Positions 3,984-21,127 of a stretch of DNA of 45,740 nucleotides are shown one piece after another. Numbering within the stretch: the first letter of the stretch is position 1; each line of letters starts with the position of its first letter. The DNA comes from an uncultured archaeon (GTDB lineage: Archaea > Asgardarchaeota > Lokiarchaeia > Sigyniarchaeales > SOKP01). The translations under genes and the position numbers were made by a program. The stretch lies in NCBI GenBank assembly GCA_964388035.1, contig CAYLZE010000034.1:1-45740 (forward strand), written 5' to 3'. The notes under the pieces were generated by a model that did not search any database, had not been told where the DNA came from, and was given only the letters and a program-made list of their open reading frames with translations.

Positions 3984-5192
3984 CTAAGTATGATCTTGAA
4001 TATATTTTTTGTCTTGATTGATACAATAATACCATAGATTTCTTGACATTAAACAATAATCTTCCCTCCCCATTTTTTCTAATATAACTATCCTCCATTT
4101 ACGAGCCTCTAAATTTTGAGGGTATGTCGCTATTAGTATATCTAAAATTTGGAGAGCTAATTGACTCTTTCCTTTATCATGTAGAAATCGTGATCTTTTT
4201 ATGATTTTGCTCGGCTCTCCTATGAGATCACATATTTCTTTCATCACTTCCTTTTCTGGTCTGGGTAGCAAATGAGCAGGATTTCCATCAAAATATCCGT
4301 GATACCACCGATACACGTTAAAAACGAAGAATTCTGGACGGGAATATCTTTGTTTAAGATAGGGACTTTTTTCTAACTGATTTGGAAGCTTAACTCGGTG
4401 AATCATTTCGGAAACCGGAATATCTTCATTTATCAAGTCAATAATTTGATTATGTAAGGCTCTAATCGCTTCGCTCGTTTGTTCGAGTGCTTTTAGTGCC
4501 CTTTTTCCTTTAAAAAAGTTTCCTCCGTAAAAAACATATTTTGGATTCTTTGCTCTAATGTTTTCCAAGGCTTTTACCCAGTCCAAAGCAAAACGGGCGG
4601 GCTTCCAAGGATTACCTACATTAGGAAAACTGCCTATTAATAAGTCCCCAACAAATGCAGTTGCAAGTTCAGGCACGTATACCCAGCAGGCATCATCAGT
4701 TTCTGCACGTTCAGAATATAACTCAAATGTTTTATCTCCCAATTTAAAACTCATCTCACCTAAAAAGGTCTTTGTTGGATAGAGATACACATTTTCATCC
4801 TGTACCTCTGGAATATTAAACTGTTGAGAAGCTATTCGCGCCTCATGGGAAGCTAACATTTTATATTTATCTAATCTTGTAACAAGATATTTATTCGCAA
4901 CAATTTCTGGTTTCTGAGACATAAAGACAGTTGAGCCACCGACATGATCTTTATGCCCATGTGTATAAATGATATATTTGAGAGTTCCCTTGATCTTTTC
5001 AAATACCTTCTTAGCAGCATCTCTTGTTAATAATGTATCTATTAAAACAACCCCTTCTGTTGTCTTAATCCACGTGCATCCCGAAATTATTTGATTAGCA
5101 GCATGTACATCCTTCAAAGGATTCGTAAATATGACTTCATTTTGATTTAAAACATTTACTGGATTCAAGGAATAACCGTTCTTGTCATTCAT
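3984..5192 (-). CDS. Metallo-beta-lactamase-fold alkylsulfatase-like hydrolase (SdsA/Pisa1/BDS1 family) with dimerisation domain
   Basis: THGHKDHVGG (HxHxDH), AETDD, VGDL, FPNVGNP, and YHGYFDGNPAHL (alkylsulfatase dimerisation motif). No C-terminal SCP2 domain. Confidence 0.8.
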   Translation of the reverse strand: MNDKNGYSLNPVNVLNQNEVIFTNPLKDVHAANQIISGCTWIKTTEGVVLIDTLLTRDAAKKVFEKIKGTLKYIIYTHGHKDHVGGSTVFMSQKPEIVANKYLVTRLDKYKMLASHEARIASQQFNIPEVQDENVYLYPTKTFLGEMSFKLGDKTFELYSERAETDDACWVYVPELATAFVGDLLIGSFPNVGNPWKPARFALDWVKALENIRAKNPKYVFYGGNFFKGKRALKALEQTSEAIRALHNQIIDLINEDIPVSEMIHRVKLPNQLEKSPYLKQRYSRPEFFVFNVYRWYHGYFDGNPAHLLPRPEKEVMKEICDLIGEPSKIIKRSRFLHDKGKSQLALQILDILIATYPQNLEARKWRIVILEKMGREDYCLMSRNLWYYCINQDKKYIQDHT

Positions 5193-5340
5193 TTTTTACC
5201 TCATTCTCATCTCTTTTATTCTTACTTTTTCTGCAAATTATAATGAAAATTTGTCATCGGGGGATAAATGGTAATGACCAGAAGAGCACCATTTCAATTG
5301 GTCGCGCATAAAATTAATAATTTACGATTTATTAATATAG

Positions 5341-5364
5341 TTGAACATTCGAGATATATAAATA
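5341..5364 (+). promoter_or_regulatory. Operator palindrome TTGAA-CA-TTCGA plus TATA box (TATAAATA, 5357-5364) of the corrinoid operon
   Basis: Same motif and same 4-nt spacing to TATA as at 9331, 16606 and 19035. Confidence 0.75.
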
Positions 5365-5490
5365 CTATTGAAATGTTTAAATAAAATAATTTCTTCTTTG
5401 AATTTAAATATTGTTAATTAATGAAATTTTGATCTATAAAAATTTGACATTCTCGTCAAATAATTAATTATGAAAATAATGGATATATAA

Positions 5491-6135
5491 ATGAAGTCGA
5501 ATTTAAAAAATAATTTAATACAGCTCGAGCAAGATAAAGTATTGGACGAAATTGAAAGTCGTCTTGAGGAGGGAGAAGATCCCCTTAGATTAATTGAAGA
5601 ATGCAATCAAGCTATGACCGAAATCGGAGAGAAATACAAAGCTAAGGATTATTTTCTTGCGGAACTGATGGCCTCTGGAGAAATCTTTAAAGAAGCAATG
5701 AAAATCATTGACCCTTACTTGGGTGGGAAAATTATTGGAGGTAAAAGCAAGGGAAAAATAATTTTAGCAACCATTCAAGGAGACATCCATGATTTAGGCA
5801 AGAATATCCTTGCAACTCTCTTAAAATTAGAAAGTTTTGAAGTATTTGATTTAGGCGTGGATGTCGCTCCTGAAGTAATCATTAACAAGGTAAAAGAAAT
5901 TAAGCCAGATATTTTAGGATTTTCGGCATTGCTTACCGTCACTTTTGATCCGATGAAACAAGTAATTGATAAATTAAAGGAAGACGGTTTGCAAGATCAA
6001 TTAAAAATAATGGTCGGTGGAGGAATTACAACCACATTGGTAAAAGAGTACGTAGGTGCCGATTTTCAAGCCATCGATGCACTAGAAGGAGTAAAATACT
6101 GTTTAGAACTAATAAACTCGCGAGGCGGAAAGTAA
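5491..6135 (+). CDS. Corrinoid (B12-binding) methyl-carrier protein, MtaC/MttC family
   Basis: N-terminal cap (MTEIGEKY...YFLAELMASGE), DIHDLG (DxHxxG), SAL and MVGGG B12-binding motifs. Confidence 0.92.
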   Translation: MKSNLKNNLIQLEQDKVLDEIESRLEEGEDPLRLIEECNQAMTEIGEKYKAKDYFLAELMASGEIFKEAMKIIDPYLGGKIIGGKSKGKIILATIQGDIHDLGKNILATLLKLESFEVFDLGVDVAPEVIINKVKEIKPDILGFSALLTVTFDPMKQVIDKLKEDGLQDQLKIMVGGGITTTLVKEYVGADFQAIDALEGVKYCLELINSRGGK

Positions 6136-6138
6136 ACT

Positions 6139-7269
6139 ATGAAAGAAGAATACATGACTCCAGAAGAAAGGGTATATGCTGCCATTAATCTCGAACAACC
6201 TGACCGTGTTCCGATCGTTCCTCTTGCTGGCATGGACTTAGCAGCACATTATTTTGGAATGAACACCGTAGAAATGCACAAAGATCCAAAAAAAGGGCTC
6301 GATATCATGCTCAAATTTTTTGATGAATTTGGAGGTTGGGATGCATATACGACCATCCCCCTTACAAAGGGCTCTTATACTATTGCGGGATATAAAGTGA
6401 AGGCGCCAGGAATGGAATTACCGGATGATTATTTTTTACAATTTGATGAAGGAGAATGGTTAAAAATAGAGGATTATAAAACTATTGCTGATGTTGGATG
6501 GGCAAAGTTTAATGCAACAGATTTTGTGTATCGAATCTCTAATTGGACACCTGAAGATGCTGAAAATGCTCGAGTAACTCAGCGGAAATTGATGGGATAT
6601 GCAATGTATCAATGGTCGAAGCGAAACGTGGGAATGAAGGTAGGATCTTCTTTTAATCATCCTTTCTTTACTCTCTCTTTAAATCGCTCCATGATAAAAT
6701 TCACGCAAGATCTTTATCAGCGACCAGAATTGGTAGAAGCAGCTCTTGATACGATGACTGACGAACTTATAAGGAGAATAATTAAACAATGTCAACTTTC
6801 ACGCGGGAATGTGGTCTTTATCCCCGAAGAAAGAGCCGAGGACGCGATATATCCCTTGAAAATTTTCGAACGATTCTGGTGGCCGTTTACGAAAAGAATG
6901 GTAGAAAAACTGCACGATAAAGGCATCATACCCTGGTTTCATCTAGATCAATGTTGGGATTTAAATATTCCCTACTTTAAAGAATTACCTAGAGCATCGT
7001 GCTTTTTGGATTTTGATGGCTTGACCGACATCTTCAAAGCAAAAGAAATCTTACATGATCATCTTTGTATCATGAGCGATGTAAGCGCATCTTTATTTTC
7101 AATAGGAACACCAGATCAGGTCGAAGATTATTGTAAGAAGCTCATTGATAAACTAGGTGTTGATGGAGGTCACATCTTGGGCTCGGGTTGTGAAATCCCC
7201 CCTACTTGTAAGCCAGAAAATTTTAAAAGATTCCTCCATGTAGGAAAAACCTATCAATTATCTAAATAA
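6139..7269 (+). CDS. UroD/MtaA-CmuA superfamily corrinoid methyltransferase
   Basis: TPEERVYAAINLEQPDRVPIVP N-terminus, FERFWWP, WFHLD, GTPDQVEDYCKKLI and GSGCEIP. Starts 3 nt after the corrinoid gene. Confidence 0.82.
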   Translation: MKEEYMTPEERVYAAINLEQPDRVPIVPLAGMDLAAHYFGMNTVEMHKDPKKGLDIMLKFFDEFGGWDAYTTIPLTKGSYTIAGYKVKAPGMELPDDYFLQFDEGEWLKIEDYKTIADVGWAKFNATDFVYRISNWTPEDAENARVTQRKLMGYAMYQWSKRNVGMKVGSSFNHPFFTLSLNRSMIKFTQDLYQRPELVEAALDTMTDELIRRIIKQCQLSRGNVVFIPEERAEDAIYPLKIFERFWWPFTKRMVEKLHDKGIIPWFHLDQCWDLNIPYFKELPRASCFLDFDGLTDIFKAKEILHDHLCIMSDVSASLFSIGTPDQVEDYCKKLIDKLGVDGGHILGSGCEIPPTCKPENFKRFLHVGKTYQLSK

Positions 7270-7324
7270 TTTTCTATAAAATTTGTAAAATTAAAACGAA
7301 AAATAAAATATTGGAAAATATACC

Positions 7325-9151
7325 ATGAGAGATTCAAAGGTCAAAGATCCAGATCTAATCGATAAAAAAGAATACAGGAAAAGAAGAATGGAATTATTCA
7401 AGAAGTACGGTCCGCTAATTCAAGAAATTCTGGACATGCCTTCCGAGAATAAATTATCGTGGGGAATGCTCGTAGAAGATAATGCAAATAAATATCCCGA
7501 TAACCCTGCAATTAAATTTGAGGATATCACTCTAACTTACAAACAATTTAATGATTCGGTCAATCAATATGCTCATTACTTCATTTTTTTGGGTTTGAAA
7601 AAAGGGGACGTCGTAGAGATAATGATGACAAATCGGATAGAATTATTGGTCATTTTTACTGCGATTGCCAAGCTCGGGGCAATTAGCTCGTTGATTAATA
7701 TTGATATGCGGGGAAACGGTCTGATATATTGTCTAAATAAAACCCCCGGAAAATTTCTGATAATTGGCTCGGAATTAATTGATGAATTCGTGGATGTCAA
7801 GCCTAACCTTAATTTATCACCAGATCAGATCCTTTTCTTTTCCCCTGATCGCGATTCTAAAGGTGTTCCGGAAGGATTTATTGACATTAGTCAAGAGGTA
7901 AAAAATTACCCTTTAGATAATCCTCCCACTACTAACACTGTTAAAACCAAGGACCCAGTCGCGTATTTATTCACATCTGGTACCACTGGCCTTCCCAAGG
8001 CGGCTATAATTATCCACTATAGATTTGTTGGGAGCGCTTATTATTTTGGTCTTTTGATGGCAGAAATTACTCCCAATGATACCGTATATGTACCCCTTCC
8101 CTTTTTTCATGGAACACCTTTAGCGGTTGGTTGGTCCATTGCTTTTTCGAGAGGAGCTGCTTTAGCATTTTGCCGAAAATTCAGCATATCCAGCTTCTGG
8201 GAAGATATACGTAAATTTAATGCAACTGTTTTCATTTATATCGGAGAATTATTAAGATATTTATTGAATCAAACGCCTTCTTCCGATGACAAAAATCATT
8301 CCATAAGAGCAGTTCTCGGTCCAGGACTGCGGCCAGAAATCTGGATGGATTTTAAAGAGCGCTTTGGGATTGATTATGTTGGAGAATTTTACGGAGCTAG
8401 CGAATGTGCCGCTATTTTTGCTAATATTTTAAATTTTGATCGTACTATGGGCACCTGTTCTTCTAATTTTGCGATAGTTAAATATGATTTAGAAGAAGAA
8501 ATTCCGATTAGAAACGATAGTGGGTTCATGGAAAAGGTAGATGAAGGTGGGATAGGATTATTGCTCTTTGAGAGCAAGGGTACCACCTCTTTTAGAGGAT
8601 ATACCGATAAGGAAGCCACCCAAGCGAAGTTGATTAATAATGTTTTTACTGAAGGCGATATATGGTTTAATTCTGGTGATTTAGTAAAAGATCAAGGGTG
8701 CGCGCATGCTCAATTTGTCGATCGTCTTGGAGATACGTTCCGATGGAAAGGACACAATATCTCTACTACTGAAGTAGAACAAGTGCTCAATTTATTCGAT
8801 AAGGTCTTGTTTTCAACGGTGTATGGTGTAGAATTACCCCATATAGATGGAAGAGCAGGGATGGCAGCCATCGTAACAAGCACTCCTATCGAAGATTTTA
8901 ATTTAAAAGGTCTCACAGCTATATTTGACAGAAACCTCGCGCCGTATGCTAAACCAATTATTCTGAGATTCAAATCAAGTTTATCCATCACGCCAACTTT
9001 TAAATTTAAAAAAATTAAATTGAAAAAAGAAGGCTTTGATCGTGATAAGATTAAAGATCCCTTGTTTATCTTGTTGCCCGGCGAGAAAGAATACGTGCCG
9101 TTAACAAAAGAAATCCATGAAAAAGTACACCATGGCCAATATAAATTCTAA
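7325..9151 (+). CDS. Long/very-long-chain acyl-CoA synthetase, FATP/SLC27 (FadD6-like) subfamily
   Basis: AMP-binding motifs FTSGTTGLPKAA and EFYGASE, plus the FATP signature FVDRLGDTFRWKGHNISTTEVE. Confidence 0.9.
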   Translation: MRDSKVKDPDLIDKKEYRKRRMELFKKYGPLIQEILDMPSENKLSWGMLVEDNANKYPDNPAIKFEDITLTYKQFNDSVNQYAHYFIFLGLKKGDVVEIMMTNRIELLVIFTAIAKLGAISSLINIDMRGNGLIYCLNKTPGKFLIIGSELIDEFVDVKPNLNLSPDQILFFSPDRDSKGVPEGFIDISQEVKNYPLDNPPTTNTVKTKDPVAYLFTSGTTGLPKAAIIIHYRFVGSAYYFGLLMAEITPNDTVYVPLPFFHGTPLAVGWSIAFSRGAALAFCRKFSISSFWEDIRKFNATVFIYIGELLRYLLNQTPSSDDKNHSIRAVLGPGLRPEIWMDFKERFGIDYVGEFYGASECAAIFANILNFDRTMGTCSSNFAIVKYDLEEEIPIRNDSGFMEKVDEGGIGLLLFESKGTTSFRGYTDKEATQAKLINNVFTEGDIWFNSGDLVKDQGCAHAQFVDRLGDTFRWKGHNISTTEVEQVLNLFDKVLFSTVYGVELPHIDGRAGMAAIVTSTPIEDFNLKGLTAIFDRNLAPYAKPIILRFKSSLSITPTFKFKKIKLKKEGFDRDKIKDPLFILLPGEKEYVPLTKEIHEKVHHGQYKF

Positions 9152-9330
9152 AAATATAAATCAATTTTTTATTCTTAAATTTAGCGCTTATGCTGATACA
9201 TTTATCAACAGAGTAAAGTAAATAAATTGTTTTTAATATGCATCTTACCAGATTTGCAAAAATCCTAATAATTGGTAAAATTCATGTTTAATTGGAGAAA
9301 GATTTAGTAATTTATCAATAAATAAAATAT

Positions 9331-9354
9331 TTGAACATTCAATTAATATATATA
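9331..9354 (+). promoter_or_regulatory. Perfect operator palindrome TTGAA-CA-TTCAA plus TATA box (TATATATA, 9347-9354) of the acx operon
   Basis: Read directly. Part of a 72-nt block homologous to 5341-5412. Confidence 0.78.
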
Positions 9355-9464
9355 ACATTGAAATGTTTAAATAGTATTATGACTTCTTTGAATTTAAATA
9401 TTAATTTTTAACAATTTGACATTCAGTAAAGCGAATTGTAGCTATAAAAAAAAATGATATAAAT

Positions 9465-11621
9465 ATGATTTTAAAAAATAATAAAAAAGAAGACTTCATA
9501 TTAAAGGCAATTTCTCTGGACACGGGTGGAACGATGACTGACTCGTTTATTATTGATAGCGAAGGATCTTTTACCATAGGGAAGGCACAGACAACACCAT
9601 ATAATGAAATCGAAGGAATAATCAATTCAATAAACGATGCCTTAAGTCTGTATAAAACGACTTTGGATGAAGCAGGTAAATCCGTAGAAGCACTTGTCTA
9701 TTCTGGGACTGCAATGTTAAATAGACTTTTAGAAAGGGAAGGGAATAGCAATATTGGAATCATCGTGAATGCTGGTTTTGAAGATCTTCTGCGATTAGGA
9801 CGAGCGTTGCAATGCTGGATGTGGTTAGATTATGGGGGTCGCTTGCATGCCAGAGAACACGAACATCCTAAACCGCTTATCCCAAGAGAGCAAATTAAAG
9901 GTGTAAGAGGTAGAATCAATTTTTTACGGGAAGAAATTGTTCCTCTTTATAAAAAGGAAGCAGAACGTGCTGTAGAAGAATTGCTTGATATGGGGGTAGA
10001 TAGCATCTGTGTATGTCTATTATACGCTTATTTGAATCCTCGTCATGAGAAAATGGTAGAAAGAATTGCTAAAAAAATTATGAAGAAAAAAGGCGTGGAG
10101 ATTCCCATTATATTATCATGCGAACACAATCCTGTCCGCGGAGAGACACCGAGATTAAATTCTCTCGTTATCGAGCAATATGCCGTAGAACCTTCGAGAA
10201 AACAATTAATAAATATCGCAAATGCGATTAAAGAAAAGGGAATACCTACACCTTTACGAGTTCTTACATCGTATGGTTCCACCATAAGCCCATTTCATAA
10301 AAGTCTCATTCCTACCATGGTATCTGGCCCTATTGGGGGATTAATCGGATGCAAATTTCTCGCAGAAAAGTTAGGAATAAAAAATCTCGTATCTTCGGAT
10401 GTGGGAGGTACGAGCTTCGATGTGGGTCTTTTAATGGAAAAATATGTGCCAACAAAATGGGAAAGTTCAATGGGACAATTTATTTTGAACGTTCCGATGA
10501 TTAGCCTAAATGCTATTGGAGCCGGAACCGGCATGTTTTTAAAATATAATGAGGTATCGGGACGACTGGAATTTGGACCCGAGAGTGCTGGTTACCGAAT
10601 AGGCGTGAGTAACGAAAAGTCAGGTGTAGAAAGGGTTACCATCACAGATTGCAGTTTGATCTTAGGTTATCTAAATCCCGATAATTTTCTTGGGGGTAGG
10701 ATTCCATTAAATAAATCGCGTGCGTTGAAATATATTGAAAAGCAAATTGCGAATCCCTTCAATGTTGATCCATTTGATGCTGCCAGAGGTGCGATTGACC
10801 TCGTAGAAATTAGCATGAGAAACCACTTGAATAGCATGATTCAAGGGTTAGGATTTAGGCCCGAAAATTATACATTAATTTCATTTGGAGGAGGAGGACC
10901 CTTACATGTTGCAGGATATAGCAGGGATATGAATTTTGAAAATGTGCTCATCCCCGAATGGGCGGCTGCGTTTTCAGCTTTCGGATGTAATTGCGCGGAT
11001 CATGGATATCGATACGAAAAGTCGGTAGACTTAGTAATAGCTCCTGATGGAAGTCTTAATAAGAGTGTTATAATGATGCTAAATGCAACTTGGTCCGATC
11101 TGAAAAAAGACATCATTAAGGAGTTTGAAAGGGAAGACCGGGACTCAGGAGATATAGAATTTAAACTTTCATTAAGAATTCAATATCTAGGAATGCTTGA
11201 CGATTTGGAAGTTGATTCGCCTTCCTCCAACATCAATGAGGATGATCTAAAGATGATAACAAAAAATTATAATGAGTTTTTTGAAAGGATCTTCCATAAA
11301 GGGACTTCAAGTCCAGAATTAGGATATCATATACCTAAGGCAATAGCTACCGGAATTGTTCCTCTACCTAAACCAAAATTGCCAGAATATAGTATTGGAA
11401 GCGACACACCGGATGAGAATGCTTTGAAAGAGCATAGGGAAATATATTGGGATAATTCTTGGCATGATGCCCGAATTTGGGAAATGGAATTATTAAAATC
11501 AGGGAATAAGATCAATGGTCCTGGGGTGATAGAAGCTCCTGCTACTACCTTGTTGGTACCACCTGGTTTTACTGTAGATTTGGATAAACATAGAATATTT
11601 CAAATGAAGCACGTGAGGTGA
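9465..11621 (+). CDS. acxA: Acetone carboxylase-like beta subunit (hydantoinase/oxoprolinase A family, ATP-binding)
   Basis: ASKHA motifs LDTGGTMTD and SDVGGTSFD, plus YSGTAMLNRL, SGPIGG, GPESAG and GGGGPLH. First gene of a beta-alpha-gamma cluster. Confidence 0.88.
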   Translation: MILKNNKKEDFILKAISLDTGGTMTDSFIIDSEGSFTIGKAQTTPYNEIEGIINSINDALSLYKTTLDEAGKSVEALVYSGTAMLNRLLEREGNSNIGIIVNAGFEDLLRLGRALQCWMWLDYGGRLHAREHEHPKPLIPREQIKGVRGRINFLREEIVPLYKKEAERAVEELLDMGVDSICVCLLYAYLNPRHEKMVERIAKKIMKKKGVEIPIILSCEHNPVRGETPRLNSLVIEQYAVEPSRKQLINIANAIKEKGIPTPLRVLTSYGSTISPFHKSLIPTMVSGPIGGLIGCKFLAEKLGIKNLVSSDVGGTSFDVGLLMEKYVPTKWESSMGQFILNVPMISLNAIGAGTGMFLKYNEVSGRLEFGPESAGYRIGVSNEKSGVERVTITDCSLILGYLNPDNFLGGRIPLNKSRALKYIEKQIANPFNVDPFDAARGAIDLVEISMRNHLNSMIQGLGFRPENYTLISFGGGGPLHVAGYSRDMNFENVLIPEWAAAFSAFGCNCADHGYRYEKSVDLVIAPDGSLNKSVIMMLNATWSDLKKDIIKEFEREDRDSGDIEFKLSLRIQYLGMLDDLEVDSPSSNINEDDLKMITKNYNEFFERIFHKGTSSPELGYHIPKAIATGIVPLPKPKLPEYSIGSDTPDENALKEHREIYWDNSWHDARIWEMELLKSGNKINGPGVIEAPATTLLVPPGFTVDLDKHRIFQMKHVR

Positions 11622-11627
11622 AAAAAG

Positions 11628-13841
11628 TTGAATAAAAATATTGGATGGAATAATAAAACCTTAAAGCAAATGTTAGAAGTGAGCGAAAACTTATTAGAAG
11701 AAACTAATACCTATTATGGGTTAAAAACTCTCGAATTAAAAAATAAAAATCCGTTTCGGTATGAACGTGCTTTTGCAAATCTAAGAGGTGGTTTAGTATC
11801 TGCCCGGGAAACTGCTCTACATGTTTCAGCATCCCCGATTGTGAGAGAAATCGGAGAATTGTGTTTCGGTCTATATACTCCAGAAGGAGATGCTATAGCC
11901 GTGTCTACCGGTATCATGATCCACGTACATACTATGAGCGAAGCTATTAAGTTTATGATAAGGAATAATTATGAAATGGATCCGGGCATTCAACTGGGCG
12001 ATATTTTTCTCAACAACGATCCTGATTGTGGTAATGTTCATACTACTGATGTTCAGACGCTAATTCCTATCTTCTGGGAAGACGAGCTAATTGGATGGGC
12101 GGGTGGTGTGACGCACGAATTAGACATTGGTGGCATTACTCCCGGTCATACGCTTGTTGCTGCCGTTCAAAGATTTGATGATGGCATTTATTATACTTGC
12201 AGAAAAATAGGGTCAAATGATAAAATCTGGAATGACCACCTCATAAATGCGATGAGAGGCACGAGAATGCCCTTATATTGGGAATTGGATGAAAAATGTA
12301 GATTAGCAGGAGATATGATGATAAGAGATGCCGTATTGGAATTTATAAAAAAAGAGGGAATTGATTACTACAAAGGATTCATTCGGGAAACCATAGAAGA
12401 AGGGAGGAATATATTTAAAAAGCGGGTGAAAGAACGGCTTATCCCGGGCAGATATAGAGCCGCTTCATTTATCGATGCTCCCATTAAAAAAGAAGCGTGG
12501 AGACCCATGGCTAAAATCGATAAAGTCGCAAATCAACCCATCGAAATCATTGTAAAAGATGATGGTACATTGCGGTTATCTTTTGATGGAGCGAATAAAG
12601 CAGACAATTCGCCATTTAATTGCGGGATAGGAGCGATGTCTGGCGGTCAATGGGTGTTACTCACTCAAGTGCTAATTTATAGAGATAAAGTCAATGATGG
12701 CGCTTATTATGCGATTGAAAAGGATTATCCTAAAGGTACGTGGGCGAATCCCGGAAATCCCTTGCTCTCTTATCAAAATCCTTGGGGGACTTTAATTCCA
12801 GCTTATACGGGGATGATGAAATGTCTCTCTTATGGATTTTTTTCCCGGGGATTTAGAGAAGAAGTAGTTCCAGGGTATGGAATGACAGGCGATAGTATTC
12901 AAGGCGGAGGTATGTTTTCTAAAGGTCTGGCAAAAGGAACCAGATGGTCATTATCCACCTTTGAAATCAGCGGACAGGGACTTGGTGCGAGTGCTGTCAA
13001 GGATGGCCTTGATTGGGGATATGCAATGTGGAATCCGGAAGCAGATCTTGGGGATGTTGAAACCTGGGAATTATTACAAGGGGGAATTCCTTATCTCGCA
13101 CGGCGAGTTAAACCTAATACTGCTGGTTATGGCAAGTATAGAGGTGGTGCGAATTATGAAGGAATTGCTTTTATTTATAATTCAGAAGATGTGGAATTTT
13201 TTGGTGCCCGAGAAGGCCTCTGCTTTCATGGCTGTGGAGGAATGCATGGCGGATATCCTCAATCCACCGGATACCGACTCTATGCTAAAAATACCAACTT
13301 AGAAGAAATATTCAAAAATCAGCAAGAATACCCTCTCGGAGACTCGAATCCAGAAGATGGAGAATTTGAAAAAATGATAAAGGGGGAAATCATAAGAAAG
13401 CCGTATTGTCTTCTTTATCCCATAAGCTTGGAAAACTATGACTTGATTCACTTTTCAATGAGTGGAGGACCAGGATATGGGGATCCTCTGGAAAGAAAAG
13501 AAGAAGCCCTTAAGGTGGACTTGAAGGAGGGCATATATACGGAGAAAATCGTCAATAATGTTTTTGGCATTGTTGCTGAATTTAATGAGGATAAAAAGGA
13601 ATGGATGATAAACGAGGAAGCAACTATGAAAAGACGAGAAGAACTTAGAATGGAGAGACAAGAACAATCCGTGTCTTTTGAAGAATATTGGAAAGAAGAG
13701 CGAGAACGAATCCTCAATGGAAGTTATCATGAAGCGGTTACACTCATGTATCATGAAAGCTTTGACTTATCGCAAAAGTTTGCTAAAGAATTTAGGAAAT
13801 TTTGGAATCTACCCGAAAATTTTAATTTTGAGGTGAAATAA
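11628..13841 (+). CDS. acxB: Acetone carboxylase-like alpha subunit (hydantoinase B family, metal-binding)
   Basis: SASPIVREIGELCFGLY, STGIMIHVHTM, GNVHTTD and GVTHELD metal-ligand motifs, WNPEADLGDVETWE, GYGKYRGG and GGPGYGDPLER. TTG start after a GAGGTGA Shine-Dalgarno. Confidence 0.9.
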   Translation: MNKNIGWNNKTLKQMLEVSENLLEETNTYYGLKTLELKNKNPFRYERAFANLRGGLVSARETALHVSASPIVREIGELCFGLYTPEGDAIAVSTGIMIHVHTMSEAIKFMIRNNYEMDPGIQLGDIFLNNDPDCGNVHTTDVQTLIPIFWEDELIGWAGGVTHELDIGGITPGHTLVAAVQRFDDGIYYTCRKIGSNDKIWNDHLINAMRGTRMPLYWELDEKCRLAGDMMIRDAVLEFIKKEGIDYYKGFIRETIEEGRNIFKKRVKERLIPGRYRAASFIDAPIKKEAWRPMAKIDKVANQPIEIIVKDDGTLRLSFDGANKADNSPFNCGIGAMSGGQWVLLTQVLIYRDKVNDGAYYAIEKDYPKGTWANPGNPLLSYQNPWGTLIPAYTGMMKCLSYGFFSRGFREEVVPGYGMTGDSIQGGGMFSKGLAKGTRWSLSTFEISGQGLGASAVKDGLDWGYAMWNPEADLGDVETWELLQGGIPYLARRVKPNTAGYGKYRGGANYEGIAFIYNSEDVEFFGAREGLCFHGCGGMHGGYPQSTGYRLYAKNTNLEEIFKNQQEYPLGDSNPEDGEFEKMIKGEIIRKPYCLLYPISLENYDLIHFSMSGGPGYGDPLERKEEALKVDLKEGIYTEKIVNNVFGIVAEFNEDKKEWMINEEATMKRREELRMERQEQSVSFEEYWKEERERILNGSYHEAVTLMYHESFDLSQKFAKEFRKFWNLPENFNFEVK

Positions 13842-14333
13842 ATGAGCAACCAAGATGAAACATTACTAGAAAAAATGTTGGATGGAGACTTATCTTGGAA
13901 TGAATTACTCCCTATCATTCAAGATGATAAAGATCCCCATCGTTTTGAAAAAATCCTTAAAATCTTACAAAATCGTGTCCCTTGGAAAGAAAAAATTCTT
14001 TTACCACTCCATGAGCATTTATACGTGGTAGAGAAAAACGGAGAGAGAATTGTCAAATGCGATTGCGGTCAGGAATTTGGGGATTATAGAAATAATTGGA
14101 AATTAAAATGCAAGGTTCGAATCAGAAACACCATCGAAGCAATCAATGAATTATATCCTAAATACATGGGTTCTGATCCCGAGTGGGAGATCTTGAGAGA
14201 ATATTTCTGCCCTCAATGTTTTACGCTACTTGATACGGAAGCGGTACCTCCGGGATATCCCCCGATTTTTAATTTCTTACCGGATATCGATGCATTTTAT
14301 GAGAAATGGATGAAAAATCCAGATAAAAAATGA
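13842..14333 (+). CDS. acxC: Acetone carboxylase-like gamma subunit (Zn-binding)
   Basis: KCDCGQEFGDYRNNWKL and REYFCPQC (CxC...CxxC), plus EAVPPGYP and FLPDIDAFY. Directly abuts the acxB stop. Confidence 0.9.
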   Translation: MSNQDETLLEKMLDGDLSWNELLPIIQDDKDPHRFEKILKILQNRVPWKEKILLPLHEHLYVVEKNGERIVKCDCGQEFGDYRNNWKLKCKVRIRNTIEAINELYPKYMGSDPEWEILREYFCPQCFTLLDTEAVPPGYPPIFNFLPDIDAFYEKWMKNPDKK

Positions 14334-14336
14334 AAC

Positions 14337-14345
14337 TTTTTTTTT
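14337..14345 (+). terminator. Oligo-T tract after acxC (possible archaeal terminator or attenuation point before the SDR)
   Basis: T9 run 3 nt after the stop codon. Confidence 0.4.
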
Positions 14346-14411
14346 AATATTATTATGTGTTTTGAATCAATAAATTATTAAATATGAGGATAACAAATAA
14401 ATTGATGCAAA

Positions 14412-15290
14412 ATGAACGATTTTAAAGATAAAATTGCGGTAATCACGGGTGGTGCAAGCGGAATCGGGAAAGGATTAGCAGAAAAATGTCTTAGTAAGGG
14501 AATGAAAGTCGTACTAGCAGATATTCAAAAAGGAGCTTTAAACACTGCAACCGAAGAATTACAATCCAAAGGAGGCACTGTCATAAGCGTTTTAACTGAT
14601 GTTTCTAACCCGGATCACGTGAAAAATTTAGCTCAAAAAACTTATAATGAATTTGGAAGGATTCATTTATTATTTAATAATGCAGGTGTTTATTTAACTA
14701 AACCCTTGTGGGATCTAAGTATTGCCGATTGGAAGTGGGTATTGGGAGTGAATTTGTGGAGCGTGATAAATAGTACTAATATATTCGTTCCATTGATGCT
14801 TAACCAAGAGGAAAACTCCCATATTATTAACACGGCTTCCTTAGCAGGAATGTTACCCGGAGGAGGTATATATGGAATGACTAAACACGCGATCATCTCC
14901 CTTACGGAATCATTATATTTTGAATTAGAACAAATTAAGGCGAAAATTAAAGTATCGGTTGTCTGTCCGTGGTATGTAAATACCTCCATTTCAAAAAGTG
15001 AGAATTATAGACCATCAGAGTTGAAGAATAATTTGTCCGTGGATGCGTCTACTACACCTCAGTCAGATAAGAAAGAAAAAGAACATTCAAGAATCATGAA
15101 GCGTTTTGAACGAAGTATCGCAAATGGAATATCGTGTGAGGAATTAGCGAATGCTATATTCGATGGAATTATCAAGGAATCCTTCTTTATAATACCTCAG
15201 CAGAGAACGTGGTGGCAAGATATCCTGAAGTCTGAATTGGATTGTATATTAGAAGGAAAAAATCCCGAACTAAGACCCACTGCTTTATGA
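14412..15290 (+). CDS. Classical short-chain dehydrogenase/reductase
   Basis: TGGASGIG, NNAG, catalytic Ser (TASLAG) and YGMTK (YxxxK). Confidence 0.92.
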   Translation: MNDFKDKIAVITGGASGIGKGLAEKCLSKGMKVVLADIQKGALNTATEELQSKGGTVISVLTDVSNPDHVKNLAQKTYNEFGRIHLLFNNAGVYLTKPLWDLSIADWKWVLGVNLWSVINSTNIFVPLMLNQEENSHIINTASLAGMLPGGGIYGMTKHAIISLTESLYFELEQIKAKIKVSVVCPWYVNTSISKSENYRPSELKNNLSVDASTTPQSDKKEKEHSRIMKRFERSIANGISCEELANAIFDGIIKESFFIIPQQRTWWQDILKSELDCILEGKNPELRPTAL

Positions 15291-15643
15291 AGATATTCAA
15301 ATTAAAGAAGTAAACACCTGATGAATCTATTTGATATCATCTATGAAAAAGCATTTAGTACCAAATGATCCATTCCATCTTAATTTTTTTTTATATCAAA
15401 TGTTTAGAGCAAAATAGGTATACATTTTTATTTTTCAGAAGTTATGTATGCAAATAATAGTATAAATTTAACGAGATTAATTGTAATGAGAAATTTAATA
15501 ACATACAATTATAATTCGTTTTTTATTAATCATGCTTAAGCTATTAAGATTGTGCAAATGATATAAAAAAATATTTAAATATGATAAATAAGAATTAATC
15601 ATTATAATTAGATTAAAAATTATTTTTAGGAGATTAGTAAATC

Positions 15644-16381
15644 ATGGCAATCAATCAAGTTGAGATGATACAATTCATCATTCTCTTAATAAATTCCCTT
15701 TTAAATATCCTATTATCAATTAGAATAATAATAAGATATTTCTCTACTAAAGTTAAAGAATTAATTTACGTGGGAGTAGCTTTTTTCTTATCTGGGATAT
15801 TATATGATGCTGCTCTTATTAATTTCTTCAAGGTTCTCTTAGTAGGAAGCCCAATCGATACTACATATATCATTGTCTGTTTAGTCTTATTTCCGTTTTT
15901 TCTATTCAGTTGGATCCTGGCTTTTACTGAATTAGTGTATAAGGGGAAGAAAATAGTAATATTGGCAACATTAATCTTCATAATAGTTTTTGAGATAATA
16001 GTAGCTGTAATATTATTAAACCCTGCTCAATCTTTAATACATTTGGATAATGATTTATTTTTCATTTGGACTCCCTTGGTCACCATATATATAACTGCTT
16101 TCTTCGTTGTGTTTGTCATTACGGCCATAATATTCAGTTTAAAAGCACGGCAGAGTGATAAGAAGCATATCAGATTAAAAGGGACCTTCATCCTTCTGGC
16201 GATTATTACTTCTATTTTCGGTTTTATAATTGAGACCGTTTTAATAGCTCTCGAGTTTTATATTATAGCAAGAGTCTTACACATTACCGCCATTTTCTTA
16301 TATTATTTTGGGTTCTTAATGCCAAAATGGGTTAGGAAGCTTTTTCACGTTGAAGCAGTAGAAGAAGTAGCTTCCACTTGA
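15644..16381 (+). CDS. Seven-transmembrane protein of unknown function
   Basis: Seven hydrophobic segments, C-terminal YYFGFLMPKW, AGGAG Shine-Dalgarno. Paralogous to the pseudogene at 27569-28300. Confidence 0.75.
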   Translation: MAINQVEMIQFIILLINSLLNILLSIRIIIRYFSTKVKELIYVGVAFFLSGILYDAALINFFKVLLVGSPIDTTYIIVCLVLFPFFLFSWILAFTELVYKGKKIVILATLIFIIVFEIIVAVILLNPAQSLIHLDNDLFFIWTPLVTIYITAFFVVFVITAIIFSLKARQSDKKHIRLKGTFILLAIITSIFGFIIETVLIALEFYIIARVLHITAIFLYYFGFLMPKWVRKLFHVEAVEEVAST

Positions 16382-16605
16382 AATTAAATTCTTTTTATTA
16401 TTATTTAATATTAAATTTTTAATTGTCTCTCCTCCATTCTTAGATGTAATTAGAATTCTTTTTTGTTAAATAAATAATTACTATCAATTTGACCTTATTT
16501 TAATAGATTAAACTCCAAAATATCTCTATGAATTCCTAAGGATTCTGAAAAAAAGAGTGCAATCAATTAAATATCTTTTAAACACTCAATTTGATTATAA
16601 TAACT

Positions 16606-16629
16606 TTGGACATCCAACCTATTTATAAA
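16606..16629 (+). promoter_or_regulatory. Perfect operator palindrome TTGGA-CA-TCCAA plus TATA box (TTTATAAA, 16622-16629)
   Basis: Read directly, with the same 4-nt spacing as the other three sites. Confidence 0.75.
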
Positions 16630-16751
16630 TATGTAAAACATTTTTAAACTGTTGGTGATATATATTAATTAGAACTTAATAGTTATCAAAAATAAAACGC
16701 AAGATTGTGCACTTTAATATAAATAAAATAAAAAAAATAATAGGAATTTTA

Positions 16752-18986
16752 ATGGCAACAAACCAAATTATGAATATAAGTAAAGATGGGGCTAAACTCA
16801 TCAAGCTTGTTATTGAACCTAATGGATGGCAAGGCTACGGAATATACGAACCCATTTTTTTCACAGTAGTACCCGTTTGGAATGATGGAATTTCTGACTT
16901 AGATTGTAGAAGAGCGGGAGATCTTCCTGAATGGACGGTAAGTGATTATGGTTATATTGAGGGAATTAGGATGGATGGTGCTATTGATTCCAACCTTGTA
17001 TCCTGTGGACCAAGAGATAAAAAAATCCAAGGAAGAGCAGAATCGAAAGAGGATAAAGGAAAAATCATACGCTATGGTAGTGTTTTAATAAAATTAGAAG
17101 AAACACGGGGGAGAACGATTTTATATCGTTCTGGTCATGGCGGAGGGATTGGCAAAGTAACCGTATCATATGGAGGACTTTCCACTTCTGTTGTAGTGAA
17201 GGGTTCGGAGGAAGTAGGTTCTACTCTACCTCAAGATTATCTTTATCTTGTTGATTTAGAAAAAGTATCCACTCATGAACAGAGCGATGAACAAGAAGTG
17301 GTTATAGATCTGAAGGAAGTAAATAATCAAGCAAAAAAATTCACGAATAACTTAAAGCACGAGAAAATCAGAAGAGAAGCGCATGCACTTTCAGAAAAGT
17401 TAGAAAAATATATTCGGGATTGGATGGATGGAAAAGTACCTGCCAGACTTCCTCGTGGTTTATTACCAGCGGGGATAGATAATTATAAATCAAAAGATTG
17501 GACTTTATGCAATATAGAGGAAATTACTCCCGAAGAACAATGGGGTATTAGACCCGCCCATAGTGTTGAAACGGATTATTCAAAGCTTTATTTTTTCTCT
17601 CCTGAACCAAATTGTACTTATTCTCTAATCATTTTCACGGCTCCTTTCGGTTCTAAGCTTGTTTTTGAGGGAGAATTTCCTCACTGTCGCTTTATGAGCA
17701 TTCAAGTTTCTCCTCCTTTCGATTCAAAATATCCTCTTACGGGAGGTATTGGGGCTGCCGAAGTTCCCATAGTGGATGTAGACATTGAGCCTTTACCGGG
17801 TAATGTTAACCCTTTTCGCCTAAATGCTGATAGGAAAGCAACAAAACGAAGTTATCAAGTAGAATTCGAGATGGGAGAGGGAAATGCAGTTGAACTCAAT
17901 CCAACTCTTATGGTCCCTCCCAATTATCGGGCGCCATCCAGCACGAGGCGGATAGCTGGCCCTTTTAACTTTTCAGGATTTATTGGGGATGGAAAATTTC
18001 TTCCTGCCATAGTATGGATGAGATATTATGCCCCAGATAATGGTTTTGGTCCTTTAGGGGGTGTTCGCTTACCTAAAGCTCATTTTGAGCTTTCTACCGG
18101 CGAAAAGTTTTGGCTTAAATGCGATTCTTCTCTTGGTTTTTTAAGAGCCAATACCGTTGTTCCTGGCTTTAGAACAGCTCCTTTAGAACCACCAAAAGCG
18201 TGGGGTCCTTCCTTAGGATGGTTGAAAATGTATGGGCTTCATCTTATTTATGTAGAAGGAATGGCTATCCAAGCGATTCCTGAAGATTCTTCCTCCTTGG
18301 TGCAGTCCGTTGCACGTAAACGCGTACGGAATTATGATAAATACATGTGGAATAGAGGTCCAGTGGCTCCTCCTCCGGGAAATTTTGAAAGTTCCTGCAC
18401 GTGTTGTCCATATATTAGTTATCTTACTAGGAGAGCCATGCTGGGACATGGAAAAGTATATGTCATGACGGGCAAACTTCCAAAAACACCTAAAACCCTT
18501 AATGGAAATCCAGTATTTACGGGCGGGGAAGCTCGGTACTGGTCCATATCTCGTTGTCACGAGTCACCTGATTATATCTTCCCTGCAATTAATTATGGGA
18601 CGTTAAACGATGAAGAGTTAATTTTAGACTCTGAAAATCACTATATAATTTGTTACTCAAGAAAAGAAGATCGTCCGAAGAATGCCAATGCAGAAAACGG
18701 GATAACATGGCAAGCATGGGGACCAGATGCCACAAACTATTTAACAATTCGATGGATGAGCGTCTCCCCAGATCATATTTTGCCCGAACATGTTCCAAAT
18801 GAGATTAACGTACCTTGGAAAGTGGGTGCTTGGTCTCAAAAAGAATTTGATAAGACAATTCTTAGTCAAAATCAGCCCGGATTACTAGGACCCTATCATC
18901 CCATACTACATTACATGATAAAGGAGGAATTTGAAGCACTTGGAAATGAAATAACCCCTAAAAAGTTCCCAAAATGGACAGTGTAA
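16752..18986 (+). CDS. Large hypothetical protein; possible N-terminal Ig-like domain and DUF1254/DUF1214-like core
   Basis: Long ORF (the track starts at GTG 16707; ATG 16752 is more likely). Motifs PEPNCTY, GEFPHCRFMSIQ and EARYWSI; N-terminal FTVVPVWNDG...WTVSD...VTVSYGGLSTSVVV is Big_2-like. The family call is tentative. Confidence 0.6.
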   Translation: MATNQIMNISKDGAKLIKLVIEPNGWQGYGIYEPIFFTVVPVWNDGISDLDCRRAGDLPEWTVSDYGYIEGIRMDGAIDSNLVSCGPRDKKIQGRAESKEDKGKIIRYGSVLIKLEETRGRTILYRSGHGGGIGKVTVSYGGLSTSVVVKGSEEVGSTLPQDYLYLVDLEKVSTHEQSDEQEVVIDLKEVNNQAKKFTNNLKHEKIRREAHALSEKLEKYIRDWMDGKVPARLPRGLLPAGIDNYKSKDWTLCNIEEITPEEQWGIRPAHSVETDYSKLYFFSPEPNCTYSLIIFTAPFGSKLVFEGEFPHCRFMSIQVSPPFDSKYPLTGGIGAAEVPIVDVDIEPLPGNVNPFRLNADRKATKRSYQVEFEMGEGNAVELNPTLMVPPNYRAPSSTRRIAGPFNFSGFIGDGKFLPAIVWMRYYAPDNGFGPLGGVRLPKAHFELSTGEKFWLKCDSSLGFLRANTVVPGFRTAPLEPPKAWGPSLGWLKMYGLHLIYVEGMAIQAIPEDSSSLVQSVARKRVRNYDKYMWNRGPVAPPPGNFESSCTCCPYISYLTRRAMLGHGKVYVMTGKLPKTPKTLNGNPVFTGGEARYWSISRCHESPDYIFPAINYGTLNDEELILDSENHYIICYSRKEDRPKNANAENGITWQAWGPDATNYLTIRWMSVSPDHILPEHVPNEINVPWKVGAWSQKEFDKTILSQNQPGLLGPYHPILHYMIKEEFEALGNEITPKKFPKWTV

Positions 18987-19034
18987 TAAATAAATTAATT
19001 TTTTTTATTTTCATTTTAATGATATAAATAATTA

Positions 19035-19058
19035 TTGGACTTCCAAAATATTTATATA
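19035..19058 (+). promoter_or_regulatory. Perfect operator palindrome TTGGA-CT-TCCAA plus TATA box (TTTATATA, 19051-19058)
   Basis: Read directly, with the same 4-nt spacing as the other three sites. Confidence 0.75.
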
Positions 19059-19137
19059 GGATTGAATCGTTAAATATACCAATAATAATCGTTTTTAGAG
19101 ATTCTTAAAAATTAAAAAATCAAAGGTTTAATTAAAA

Positions 19138-20559
19138 ATGAATCAAGAAAAAGGATTGCAAATGTCTTTTCTAGAGCCTTTACCACTCAGAAATAAATTA
19201 GGCGTGAGCTTATTTCAAATTGGTAGTACTCTTTTACGTCAAATGTTCCTGGTGGGCTTACTAATTTTTTATCGTGAACAATTATTATTATCCGAAGTGT
19301 ATATCATATATGCCTTCGCTTTATATGCCTTATGGAATGCTATTAATGATCCTTTATTTGGAATTCTATCTGATAAAACTAAGACGAAATGGGGACGCAG
19401 ACGCCCTTATCTGTGGATATTTACCCCTATTCAAGCCTTGGCATTTCTCTTATTATGGATATCTCCATCAACAGCAGAAATAGGCCAAGTCGGTGTTTTT
19501 ATATGGTTATTGGTAGGGTTATTACTTTTCGACACCGCTTTAACAGCTACAACTATCGTATGGTCTGCAGTATTACCTGAATTAACAATGATTCCTAAAG
19601 ATCGAGCAGAACTTGCATTTTACGCAACTATTTTCGCGATGATTGCTGCCATTGTTGTAATGTTCATTCCCGATGTATTTCTGAATGCCGGAACTGAAGG
19701 ACGATTTACTATAATCCTTATATTAATTATAATTCAATTAGTGACCATGGGAATTAGTAGTTACTTTGCAAAGGAGCGCTTAGTGTTCCAAGAAGATGAA
19801 TCCTTGGGAGTGGTTGATGCAATAAAGTATACGATAAAGAATAAATCTTTTTTGGTCACGACTTCCATGTGCTTTTTGACCACTTTTAATAATACCGTGT
19901 TTTACGGGGTAATATTTTTCTATTTATACTATGTACACCCAGGAACGGATCTTGGTCCATTGATGATTTTTGTCATTTTAGAGGTAGTAATAGGATTGAT
20001 TATTGGTACTATCTACGCAATTTATAATATTAAGAAAAAAGGGTTAAAACCCGCAATATTAAGAGGGCTCCTTTTTTATGCGGCAGGGTTTTTTATGATT
20101 GGTCTTTTACCGGGTATATTTGGTCTTTTAGGATTCGTTGTTGTAGGATTAGGAGTTTTTAGTTCTCAGTCCTTGGTGGGTACTGCGTTAGCCGATGTAT
20201 CTGATGAAGATGAAGTGATTACGGGTCGTCGTCGAGAAGCCGCGATTTATGGTACCAATGCATTATTCACAAAACCTGCAGAATCTGTTGGAACCTCGTT
20301 TATTGCATTCATGCTCCTTGCCTTTCATTATCAAGAACCTATAGGAGGCGTTCAGCAAGTTCAATCTTCCTTAGCTATTCTTGGTCTTTTAATAACTTTA
20401 GGGATAATACCGGGAATTGTAGCAGTGTTAGCATTTCTCGTCTTTAGACTATTTCCATTGAAAGGTGAATATTTAAAGGAAATTAAAACTAAAATGAATG
20501 AAATGCATGAAGAGAAATTAAAGCAATTCATCAAAAAAAGAACGGAACAAAAGGGTTAA
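19138..20559 (+). CDS. MFS transporter, glycoside-pentoside-hexuronide (MelB/MFS_2) family
   Basis: NAINDPLFGILSDKTKTKWGRRRPY and ADVSDEDEVITGRRREA motifs; about 12 TM helices. Confidence 0.9.
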   Translation: MNQEKGLQMSFLEPLPLRNKLGVSLFQIGSTLLRQMFLVGLLIFYREQLLLSEVYIIYAFALYALWNAINDPLFGILSDKTKTKWGRRRPYLWIFTPIQALAFLLLWISPSTAEIGQVGVFIWLLVGLLLFDTALTATTIVWSAVLPELTMIPKDRAELAFYATIFAMIAAIVVMFIPDVFLNAGTEGRFTIILILIIIQLVTMGISSYFAKERLVFQEDESLGVVDAIKYTIKNKSFLVTTSMCFLTTFNNTVFYGVIFFYLYYVHPGTDLGPLMIFVILEVVIGLIIGTIYAIYNIKKKGLKPAILRGLLFYAAGFFMIGLLPGIFGLLGFVVVGLGVFSSQSLVGTALADVSDEDEVITGRRREAAIYGTNALFTKPAESVGTSFIAFMLLAFHYQEPIGGVQQVQSSLAILGLLITLGIIPGIVAVLAFLVFRLFPLKGEYLKEIKTKMNEMHEEKLKQFIKKRTEQKG

Positions 20560-20632
20560 CTCATTTTTTTTTTAATTTTATCTATTCTTTATTGTATCAA
20601 TTTAATAGAATTTTCTCAAGAAAACTTAAAAA

Positions 20633-21127
20633 ATGAACGATATAAAAAAGAATGCTAATTTTATAATTGACTATTTAACGGGAAGAAAAATTCCAACCCA
20701 ATATAAAATACGGATTAAAGAGAGAAATTTAGGAAGCTTTAGGCAAATTTATTCAGATCCTGGCTTAATGGAAGAACCTTCTCAAATTAATAGCTTAAAA
20801 GCAAATCATTTTTATTCCGTTGTATTTGTTAATGCCTTGTTTTATAAATTAATTCCAAGCATCACTTTTGAATTCGAAGGAAAAATGAGAAATCTGATTT
20901 TAAACCATGATAAAATCGGTCATCAGGGGAGTGTTTTTAATTGGGAAGGATGTGTTGCTATTAAAGCGAATGATAAAATTACAGAAGAAGCAACATGCAC
21001 GGAAGCATGGTTTGATGAGGAAAGAGCATTGTTATTTCTTAAATTCCTAATAATAGTTAACAATCAAGAAAAAGCCATGGTGTGTAAGATAACTTCCACT
21101 GTAACTATGGAAGAGGGAAGTTTTTAA
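20633..21127 (+). CDS. Hot-dog fold protein (MaoC_dehydrat_N/HadA-like dehydratase subunit)
   Basis: Pattern IGHQGSVFNW...IKANDKITEEATCTEAW...LFLKFLIIVNNQEKAMVC resembles the HGEQ.F....I..GD.L....NQ.GE.V hot-dog consensus. Confidence 0.55.
   Translation: MNDIKKNANFIIDYLTGRKIPTQYKIRIKERNLGSFRQIYSDPGLMEEPSQINSLKANHFYSVVFVNALFYKLIPSITFEFEGKMRNLILNHDKIGHQGSVFNWEGCVAIKANDKITEEATCTEAWFDEERALLFLKFLIIVNNQEKAMVCKITSTVTMEEGSF

Follow-up and report, generated by a model that had tools for sequence, protein, structure and literature searches.

A species-specific, probably ArsR-controlled catabolic regulon with a divergent acetone-carboxylase-like complex in a salt-marsh Asgard archaeon

Introduction

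A stretch of 45,740 nucleotides from an uncultured Lokiarchaeia archaeon (contig CAYLZE010000034.1; hereafter the window) encodes an acetone-carboxylase (Acx)-like complex together with a metallo-beta-lactamase-fold (MBL) hydrolase, a corrinoid protein, a methyltransferase, a FATP-type ligase, a short-chain dehydrogenase/reductase (SDR), a large double-sandwich protein, a GPH transporter and a hot-dog protein. A sequence-only reading had joined these genes into one linear route, in which a sulfate ester or methyl ether is converted to a secondary alcohol, a ketone, a beta-keto acid and a CoA ester, with a substrate bulkier than acetone. The locus raises the question of whether its genes serve one pathway or are held together in another way.

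The host is a salt-marsh Asgard archaeon with a genome of 5.47 Mb and 33% GC, and its relatives are labelled Promethearchaeota/Lokiarchaeia. DNA more than 99% identical to the window is present in three salt-marsh metagenomes, with 30 of 30 bins covered; one of the three runs may be the source sample. Metagenome contigs span the left junction of the gene block and the methyltransferase-ligase, ligase-acx, acxC-SDR and double-sandwich-GPH-hot-dog joints, while three weak joints with 22-23-nt sides in AT-rich DNA were left out of account.

Results

The catabolic genes lie in a lineage-specific insertion

The block is probably a species-specific catabolic regulon under ArsR control that includes a divergent member of an Acx subfamily. 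In the congener G001 and in G010, the MazE/AbrB-domain gene (1708-2679) directly adjoins the gene for a D-cysteine-desulfhydrase-like pyridoxal-phosphate enzyme (25595-26890). Since the flanking genes are directly adjacent in both genomes, the ~23 kb between them in the window constitute an insertion (Table 1). The catabolic island that had been placed at 3984-21127 is thus borne out and is larger than noted, as an ArsR-type gene, a membrane protein and a kinase are added to it. Every gene listed earlier was found at full length and uninterrupted, and most insertion genes are extra paralogues within the genome. Upstream of the gene at 1708, an 18-nt AT-rich unit occurs in three to four copies (1599-1663).

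A common operator and its likely regulator

The operator TTGRACWTYCRA, a 12-bp palindrome, is found at 5341, 9331, 16606 and 19035. The shared operator of the sequence-only reading is real: the window has 4 matches versus 0.34 expected, none of 100 shuffles reaches 4, and 4 of the 6 intergenic copies of the whole 5.5-Mb genome fall in the window. Because the operator pattern had been read from the window sites themselves, a best-palindrome control was run on 1878 sets of eight neighbouring intergenic regions, where the window's contig ranked second (post hoc). The top of this genome-wide control is a second clear palindrome, TTGTCAT-N4-ATGACAA, located at G000:C1 49550, 53107 and 59433 before GPH-like transporter, sulfatase and crotonase-like genes. 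The TATA box starts exactly 4 nt past the site at 4 of 5 window sites and 7 of 20 sites at ArsR loci, compared with 4 of 136 sites elsewhere in the genome. A 108-nt promoter is duplicated before two unrelated operons with 78% identity and occurs nowhere else in the genome. The sites at 16606 and 19035 have only the operator and TATA box in common, and their differing flanks indicate selection on the site. No operator was found upstream of the kinase gene; an operator-like word at 25141-25152, within an 81-aa open reading frame upstream of that gene, lacks the TATA spacing.

The ArsR-type protein is likely the cognate regulator of the operator. Its orthologues occur in 12 other genomes, where the recognition helix and wing are conserved. 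When intergenic DNA of the orthologue loci was searched de novo with the window excluded, AACATT.GA ranked first: among 16 ArsR loci from other genomes, 10 hold it, at 14 sites altogether, whereas 70 control loci have 3 (p 1e-7, uncorrected for some 4e5 patterns). Mostly judged from sequence, other loci of the orthologues hold apparent glycyl-radical enzymes, aldehyde oxidoreductase/Fe-ADH, GPH transporters or UroD methyltransferases, and such varied catabolic loci suggest that the regulator switches catabolism in general. No copy of the operator was found ahead of the acx, corrinoid, GPH or MBL orthologues of other genomes, so its wiring appears to be local, and a conserved operator sought upstream of 49 Asgard acx operons gave nothing in common.

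Archaeal one-component catabolic regulators include FadR of Sulfolobus and the TFB-recruiting PF1088. Like these, the window protein would be a local regulator with a palindromic site by the TATA box of a catabolic cluster. In contrast to them, it belongs to an Asgard-specific ArsR subfamily with a 12-bp site, a fixed 4-nt spacing and varied catabolic loci. No description of this subfamily and operator pair was found in the literature.

The Acx-like complex belongs to a separate subfamily

The acx genes form one operon of three subunits in the order beta-alpha-gamma without epsilon, and the SDR gene is probably co-transcribed with them. The order is that of Xanthobacter autotrophicus AcxABC (PDB 5SVB, 5SVC, 5M45) and of Cupriavidus metallidurans CH34. 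In Acx alpha, the Mn ligands Glu89, His150, Asp153 and His175 have been described together with His111 (PMC5543143). They align with E77, H138, D141, H163 and H99 of the window alpha subunit, so that all Mn ligands are kept, as are the His111 equivalent, the adenine-capping Phe (beta F408) and the gamma cysteines. Considering that the metal His and Asp also occur in ATP-dependent lactamases, which share a His-Asp-His metal site (PMC8453981), the diagnostic part is the gamma subunit, specific to Acx and acetophenone carboxylase (Apc) and absent from lactamases (PMC13677872). The window encodes a Zn-type gamma subunit (PF08882). Lactamase features, namely a two-subunit or fused form without gamma and Asp at the Glu89 position, were not found, and the window has Glu there. 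These traits and the alpha scores (Table 1) uphold the Acx-type rather than lactamase identity given by the sequence-only reading.

Scores against the Apc NCBIfam models were 369, 147 and 36, below all cut-offs (1500, 1500 and 250). Longer or aromatic ketones are the substrates of Acr of Rhodococcus aetherivorans and Apc of Aromatoleum aromaticum, which share the superfamily and chemistry and couple the carboxylase to downstream acid activation. Both are five-subunit enzymes in which the large subunit is duplicated and an epsilon subunit is present, whereas the window has three, one beta gene, no epsilon and far lower scores against Apc. From canonical Acx, the complex differs in the motifs HVHT, HTTD, TH(Q/E) and PGH(D/T) in place of HVGT, HPCD, THV and PGSM. 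The canonical gating pair alpha-E85/beta-N578 is R73/D579 in the window, plausibly a compensating change. Unlike canonical acx, the window operon has no CoA-transferase or sigma-54 regulator alongside, and its host is an anaerobic archaeon.

Compared with canonical Acx from plasmids, identity is 39-44%. In FastTree and LG+G4 trees (midpoint root, no Apc outgroup), full-support branches divide a separate subfamily from the Acx of Cupriavidus, Ancylobacter and Cereibacter. A phylogeny had been called for as a check on the Acx assignment; the complex remains Acx-like by its scores and falls outside the characterised clade, in a sister subfamily. By architecture and residues it would nevertheless work like an acetone carboxylase. 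Tree members come from Asgard archaea, Dehalococcoidia, Sulfobacillus, Actinomycetota, Archaeoglobus and some halophiles, and the subfamily also occurs in genomes labelled Thor-, Hod-, Hermod-, Jord- and Freyarchaeota. An alpha match is present in 68 of 134 family genomes, nearly always in single copy. No paper on this subfamily was found, nor any literature description of an acetone or acetophenone carboxylase in Asgard, Lokiarchaeota or archaea, in a search outside which most subscription journals lay.

In the subfamily, G113 is changed to His, V176 to Gln/Glu and S186-M187 to His-Asp/Thr, and the position of the M187 change aligns with the pocket residue Tyr136 of CapB. These changes make the predicted pocket polar, contrary to what a long alkyl chain would probably need. 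In addition, smaller residues stand at the positions of Xanthobacter alpha W438 and H402/F403. Most characterised three-subunit Acx accept acetone and butanone only, and longer ketones (to C6) were shown for the five-subunit type (PMC13677872); in the three-subunit type, an internal channel of 40 angstrom has been proposed to set the size limit (PMC5543143, PMC13677872). An acetoacetate-CoA ligase gene adjoins acxC in two Sulfobacillus loci and one Thermoproteota locus, and other AMP-forming ligases flank halophile and actinobacterial members. The host genome also encodes an acetoacetate-CoA ligase, on C157. The narrow range of characterised enzymes and the ligase beside sister members speak against the proposed route through a long-chain ketone.

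The host genome has two acxABC copies, one in the window and one on C41, the latter syntenic with and sister to the copy of G001. Contamination as the origin of a second copy was rejected, as the ribosomal and RNA-polymerase genes of the contig are single copy and syntenic with the congener; its ordinary tetranucleotide use (75th percentile) also counts against contamination. The window copy is long-branched (0.28-0.30), keeps almost all subfamily-invariant positions and is under purifying selection (dN about 0.22, dS above 2.3). Pseudogenisation was rejected, as dN is far below dS.

Several variants were seen elsewhere in the subfamily. A Dehalococcoidia member (L051, 5022-7126) has a B12 acyl-CoA mutase gene pair just upstream, and an Asgard contig (L043, 3075-11042) carries an extra alpha gene before a complete beta-alpha-gamma operon. 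The alpha genes of L103, L107 and L114 form a separate divergent Asgard subclade at the usual locus, with E164 and S338 as in the window copy. In L042, L059, L119, L127 and L129 (Archaeoglobus-type, Thermoproteota), the order is alpha-beta-gamma, not beta-alpha-gamma.

The other proteins of the insertion

The MBL hydrolase (402 aa) is distantly related to Pisa1 and SdsA1 (E 1e-20) and shares an HxHxDH MBL domain and a dimerisation domain with Pisa1, SdsA1 and YjcS. It keeps HxHxDH, E164, D183 and an N...K..R stretch, presumably with metal- and sulfate-binding roles. The characterised class III alkylsulfatases are about 650 aa with SCP2, whereas the window protein has no SCP2 domain, and two later histidines, presumably metal ligands, appear replaced in it and in all aligned relatives. 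Of the alkylsulfatase-like assignment, the two domains hold, and sulfatase activity is possible. In L231-L233, pairs of short MBL genes flank genes that, from sequence, are 3-hydroxyacyl-CoA-dehydrogenase-like, FMN-oxidoreductase-like and ketopantoate-reductase-like, near a thiolase, a context hinting at a role in acyl metabolism.

For the methyltransferase, the only relative with a solved structure is CdmB, which acts on chloromethane and has the O-demethylases MtoB, MtvB, OdmB and VdmB as close kin. CdmBC, MtoBC and MtvB likewise couple a corrinoid protein to a UroD-fold methyltransferase. The window enzyme differs in being distant from them, and neither a second methyltransferase nor an activase is encoded in the insertion. 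Both C43 and G001 have an MBL paralogue with a corrinoid-methyltransferase pair from another subfamily close by. The ligase is of true FATP type by its sequence, as had been proposed: it scores 677 bits against PRK08279 (cut-off 625), and its nearest solved structure is FATP2. Six FATP-type ligase genes lie within about 16 kb in L303-L304 (G024:C6).

The nearest relatives of the SDR are uncharacterised SDRs, and the nearest named structures are lignin C-alpha dehydrogenases. Its sequence is compatible with secondary-alcohol oxidation, and these nearest enzymes, which oxidise bulky secondary alcohols, keep part of the earlier idea alive; the long-chain line found no support. The predicted model of the double-sandwich protein (pLDDT 91) matched 6ans (E 2e-13, Z 13.7), followed by VPA0735 and VPA0106. 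The DUF1214/DUF1254 literature gave no function for this fold, and an Atlas search gave scores all under 0.8. A long-form homologue lies between a GH2/glycyl-radical cluster and a UroD gene in L236 (8001-10742), a second link to UroD. The hot-dog protein has no Pfam match and resembles FAS1/MaoC by Atlas features (0.94), which gives a lead only. The N-terminus of the kinase resembles the NrtA/CmpC anion-binding domain, and the same insertion encodes the predicted bicarbonate-using enzyme.

Table 1. Coordinates of the insertion in the window and of the features within it
Feature	Position	Strand	Remarks
Lineage-specific insertion	2680-25594	not assigned	Empty site in G001 and G010
ArsR-type winged-helix regulator	2705-3454	-	Weak HTH_5 match
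MBL hydrolase with alkylsulfatase dimerisation domain, without SCP2	3984-5192	-	Divergent from the 5341 operator
Promoter/leader module, copy 1	5314-5421	+	Operator 5341-5352, TATA from 5357
Corrinoid protein	5491-6135	+	PF02310 and PF02607
UroD-superfamily methyltransferase I (substrate-to-corrinoid)	6139-7269	+	H-L-D instead of H-x-C
FATP/SLC27-type long-chain acyl-CoA synthetase	7325-9151	+	NF006134 above cut-off; FATP2 E 1e-110
Promoter/leader module, copy 2	9304-9411	+	Operator 9331-9342, TATA from 9347
Acx-like beta (ATP-binding) subunit	9465-11621	+	655 bits to Xanthobacter Acx beta, 351 to ApcC
Acx-like alpha (metal) subunit	11628-13841	+	614 bits to Acx alpha, 142 to ApcD, 34-62 to lactamases
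Acx gamma subunit	13842-14333	+	PF08882 E 1.5e-40; cysteine pairs C73/C75 and C123/C126
SDR	14412-15290	+	PRK06194-like; intact YxxxK; acidic residue typical of NAD use
Asgard multi-pass membrane protein	15644-16381	+	Family often beside this ArsR subfamily; no operator in front
Operator, copy 3	16606-16617	+	TATA 4 nt downstream
Double-sandwich protein (N-terminal Ig-like domain and DUF1254/DUF1214-like double beta-sandwich)	16707-18986	+	Predicted model
Operator, copy 4	19035-19046	+	TATA 4 nt downstream
GPH/MFS_2 symporter	19138-20559	+	
Hot-dog protein	20633-21127	+	Extra copy of one half of a widespread MaoC/FAS1-like pair
Histidine kinase with NrtA/CmpC-like anion-binding domain	21247-25071	-	Inside the insertion

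The genes do not travel together in relatives

The comparison took in 90 loci with a subfamily member, of which about 54 are Asgard, and reached up to 10 kb on each side, many of the loci being cut short by contig ends. No homologue of the MBL, corrinoid, methyltransferase, double-sandwich or hot-dog protein was found in these 90 acx loci, and ligase matches near acx were non-Asgard only and 21-28% identical. The commonest neighbours of Asgard acx are housekeeping genes and an ADP-forming acyl-CoA ligase. In none of the other genomes searched did the whole gene set turn up together. A lack of co-occurrence in relatives had been set beforehand as a finding that would refute the linear route from sulfate ester or methyl ether to CoA ester; with no linkage near acx in the Asgard loci, the route as proposed is not supported.

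Each gene has its own distribution. Methyltransferase orthologues 70-74% identical occur in 17 genomes and are paired with a corrinoid gene in 13 of 14 loci read, often by HdrA-like genes; 3 of the 17 genomes have an Acx match and 14 have none. Of 34 genomes that have close FATP ligases, 14 also have Acx, the overall Acx rate being 68 of 134; these counts are descriptions, not statistics, because kin are not independent and genomes are incomplete. Relatives of the MBL (present in 55 of 134 genomes), SDR, GPH and hot-dog proteins stand in other contexts or are family-wide, and the double-sandwich protein was found in 2 of 135 genomes only.

Discussion

Onto the observed genes, insertion, operator and fixed spacing, we would place a species-specific regulon assembled from spare copies of common Lokiarchaeia-type catabolic genes, in which a short-ketone carboxylase and its companions do parallel jobs on fragments of one food source and do not form a single conserved series of steps on a long-chain ketone. 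All substrates in it are those that we infer, and we give the whole reading slightly better than an even chance. Four transcription units have the palindrome upstream, with 4 nt between its end and the TATA box, and the ArsR-type protein would bind it there. These units are corrinoid-methyltransferase-ligase (with the MBL gene running divergently), acxABC-SDR, the double-sandwich gene, and GPH-hot-dog. An imported organic inducer would switch them on, and the fixed phase over a weak position of the BRE promoter element leans slightly to activation. The window Acx would carboxylate a short methyl ketone (about C3-C6, possibly polar) in an ATP- and bicarbonate-dependent way. The acetoacetate-CoA ligase, whose gene lies elsewhere in the genome, could activate the resulting 3-oxoacid, and the SDR may provide or regenerate a ketone. 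The methyltransferase would pass a methyl moiety onto the corrinoid protein and the MBL hydrolyse an ester, while the FATP ligase and the hot-dog protein might deal with a separate acyl chain.

Several results weigh against this short-ketone regulon. G015 holds a partial module without acx, in which the double-sandwich gene lies by a hot-dog pair, two UroD methyltransferases and three formylglycine-type sulfatases, with GPH transporters, two membrane proteins, the ArsR orthologue and an operator 4 nt before the TATA box. The window Acx departs most from Asgard-conserved columns (alpha 23, beta 40; median 4), and therefore its substrate may differ from that of its relatives. The ligase and SDR within one regulon suggest some substrate in common. 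Furthermore, enrichment at ArsR loci is weak (p 0.025-0.07) when the matrix comes from no more than the four window sites, and the regulator assignment therefore leans on the de-novo motif and the spacing tests. A minority reading, which we consider fairly unlikely, is that the window acx was re-tuned for a bulkier substrate, either a methoxy-aryl ketone or a methyl ketone of medium chain length, supplied by the demethylase, hydrolase and SDR under the same control.

A definite form of a common substrate would be lignin-derived methoxylated aryl-alkyl alcohols or ketones of the guaiacylacetone, zingerone or apocynol type, broken down by O-demethylation, SDR oxidation of the secondary alcohol, methyl-ketone carboxylation and CoA ligation, in a way comparable to the Aromatoleum acetophenone route. 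The salt-marsh habitat, the O-demethylase kin of CdmB, the lignin dehydrogenases nearest to the SDR, the smaller residues at the Xanthobacter W438 and H402/F403 positions and the mto homologues reported in Lokiarchaeota (PMC8359953) all suit it. However, the methyltransferase and SDR are remote from these relatives (E 1e-15 and 1e-30), the alpha subunit is far nearer Acx than ApcD in a complex of only three subunits, the insertion contains no ring-reduction genes and the genes are unlinked in relatives, which leaves this explanation rather unlikely. A single linear route would break down long-chain secondary-alkyl sulfates or ethers, or steroid side chains, with Acx carboxylating a C8-C16 or steroid ketone and the FATP ligase activating the product. 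We regard it as improbable: the common operator, the FATP-type ligase, MBL relatives within thiolase/3-hydroxyacyl-CoA-dehydrogenase clusters in three genomes, the AMP-forming ligases that often flank non-Asgard subfamily members and the divergence of the window Acx point to it, but synteny is lacking in the about 54 Asgard acx loci, Acx was matched in a smaller share of the methyltransferase or FATP ligase genomes than overall (counts from related, incomplete genomes), the proposed channel limits size, the pocket changes are towards polar residues and the MBL has no SCP2 domain. The specific long-chain pathway, as a single-species arrangement, is weakly supported.

The genes might also have no common substrate, having been gathered at an insertion hot spot and brought under one regulator by promoter duplication. 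Such capture would explain the 108-nt duplicate, the other neighbours that each gene has elsewhere and the lack of the operator at orthologues; the unlike flanks at 16606 and 19035, pointing to selection on the site, and the intactness of all genes make it quite improbable. Very improbable, in our view, is that the complex is an ATP-dependent lactamase of the hydantoinase/oxoprolinase type and not a carboxylase. The His-Asp-His site, the polar subfamily pocket and the position outside the characterised Acx clade could be read in this way, but a gamma subunit described as exclusive to Acx/Apc, a Glu where Acx has Glu89, the scores to Acx versus lactamases and the acetoacetate-CoA ligase beside sister members argue for a carboxylase.

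Taken all together, the carboxylase subfamily and the regulator-operator pair hold whatever the substrate. For an Asgard ArsR subfamily that marks catabolic loci, a putative regulator, operator and promoter geometry are now identified. If the bulkier-ketone reading were true, the locus would hold an archaeal anaerobic pathway that is as yet undescribed, and its enzyme would be the first ketone carboxylase of three subunits to use a substrate of that kind. In this Asgard family, about half of the genomes encode an intact ketone-carboxylase-like complex, predicted to be ATP-costly and CO2-fixing, and so do genomes of other Asgard lineages. If the subfamily carboxylates ketones, this is likely a carbon-fixing or ketone-scavenging reaction in sediment archaea.

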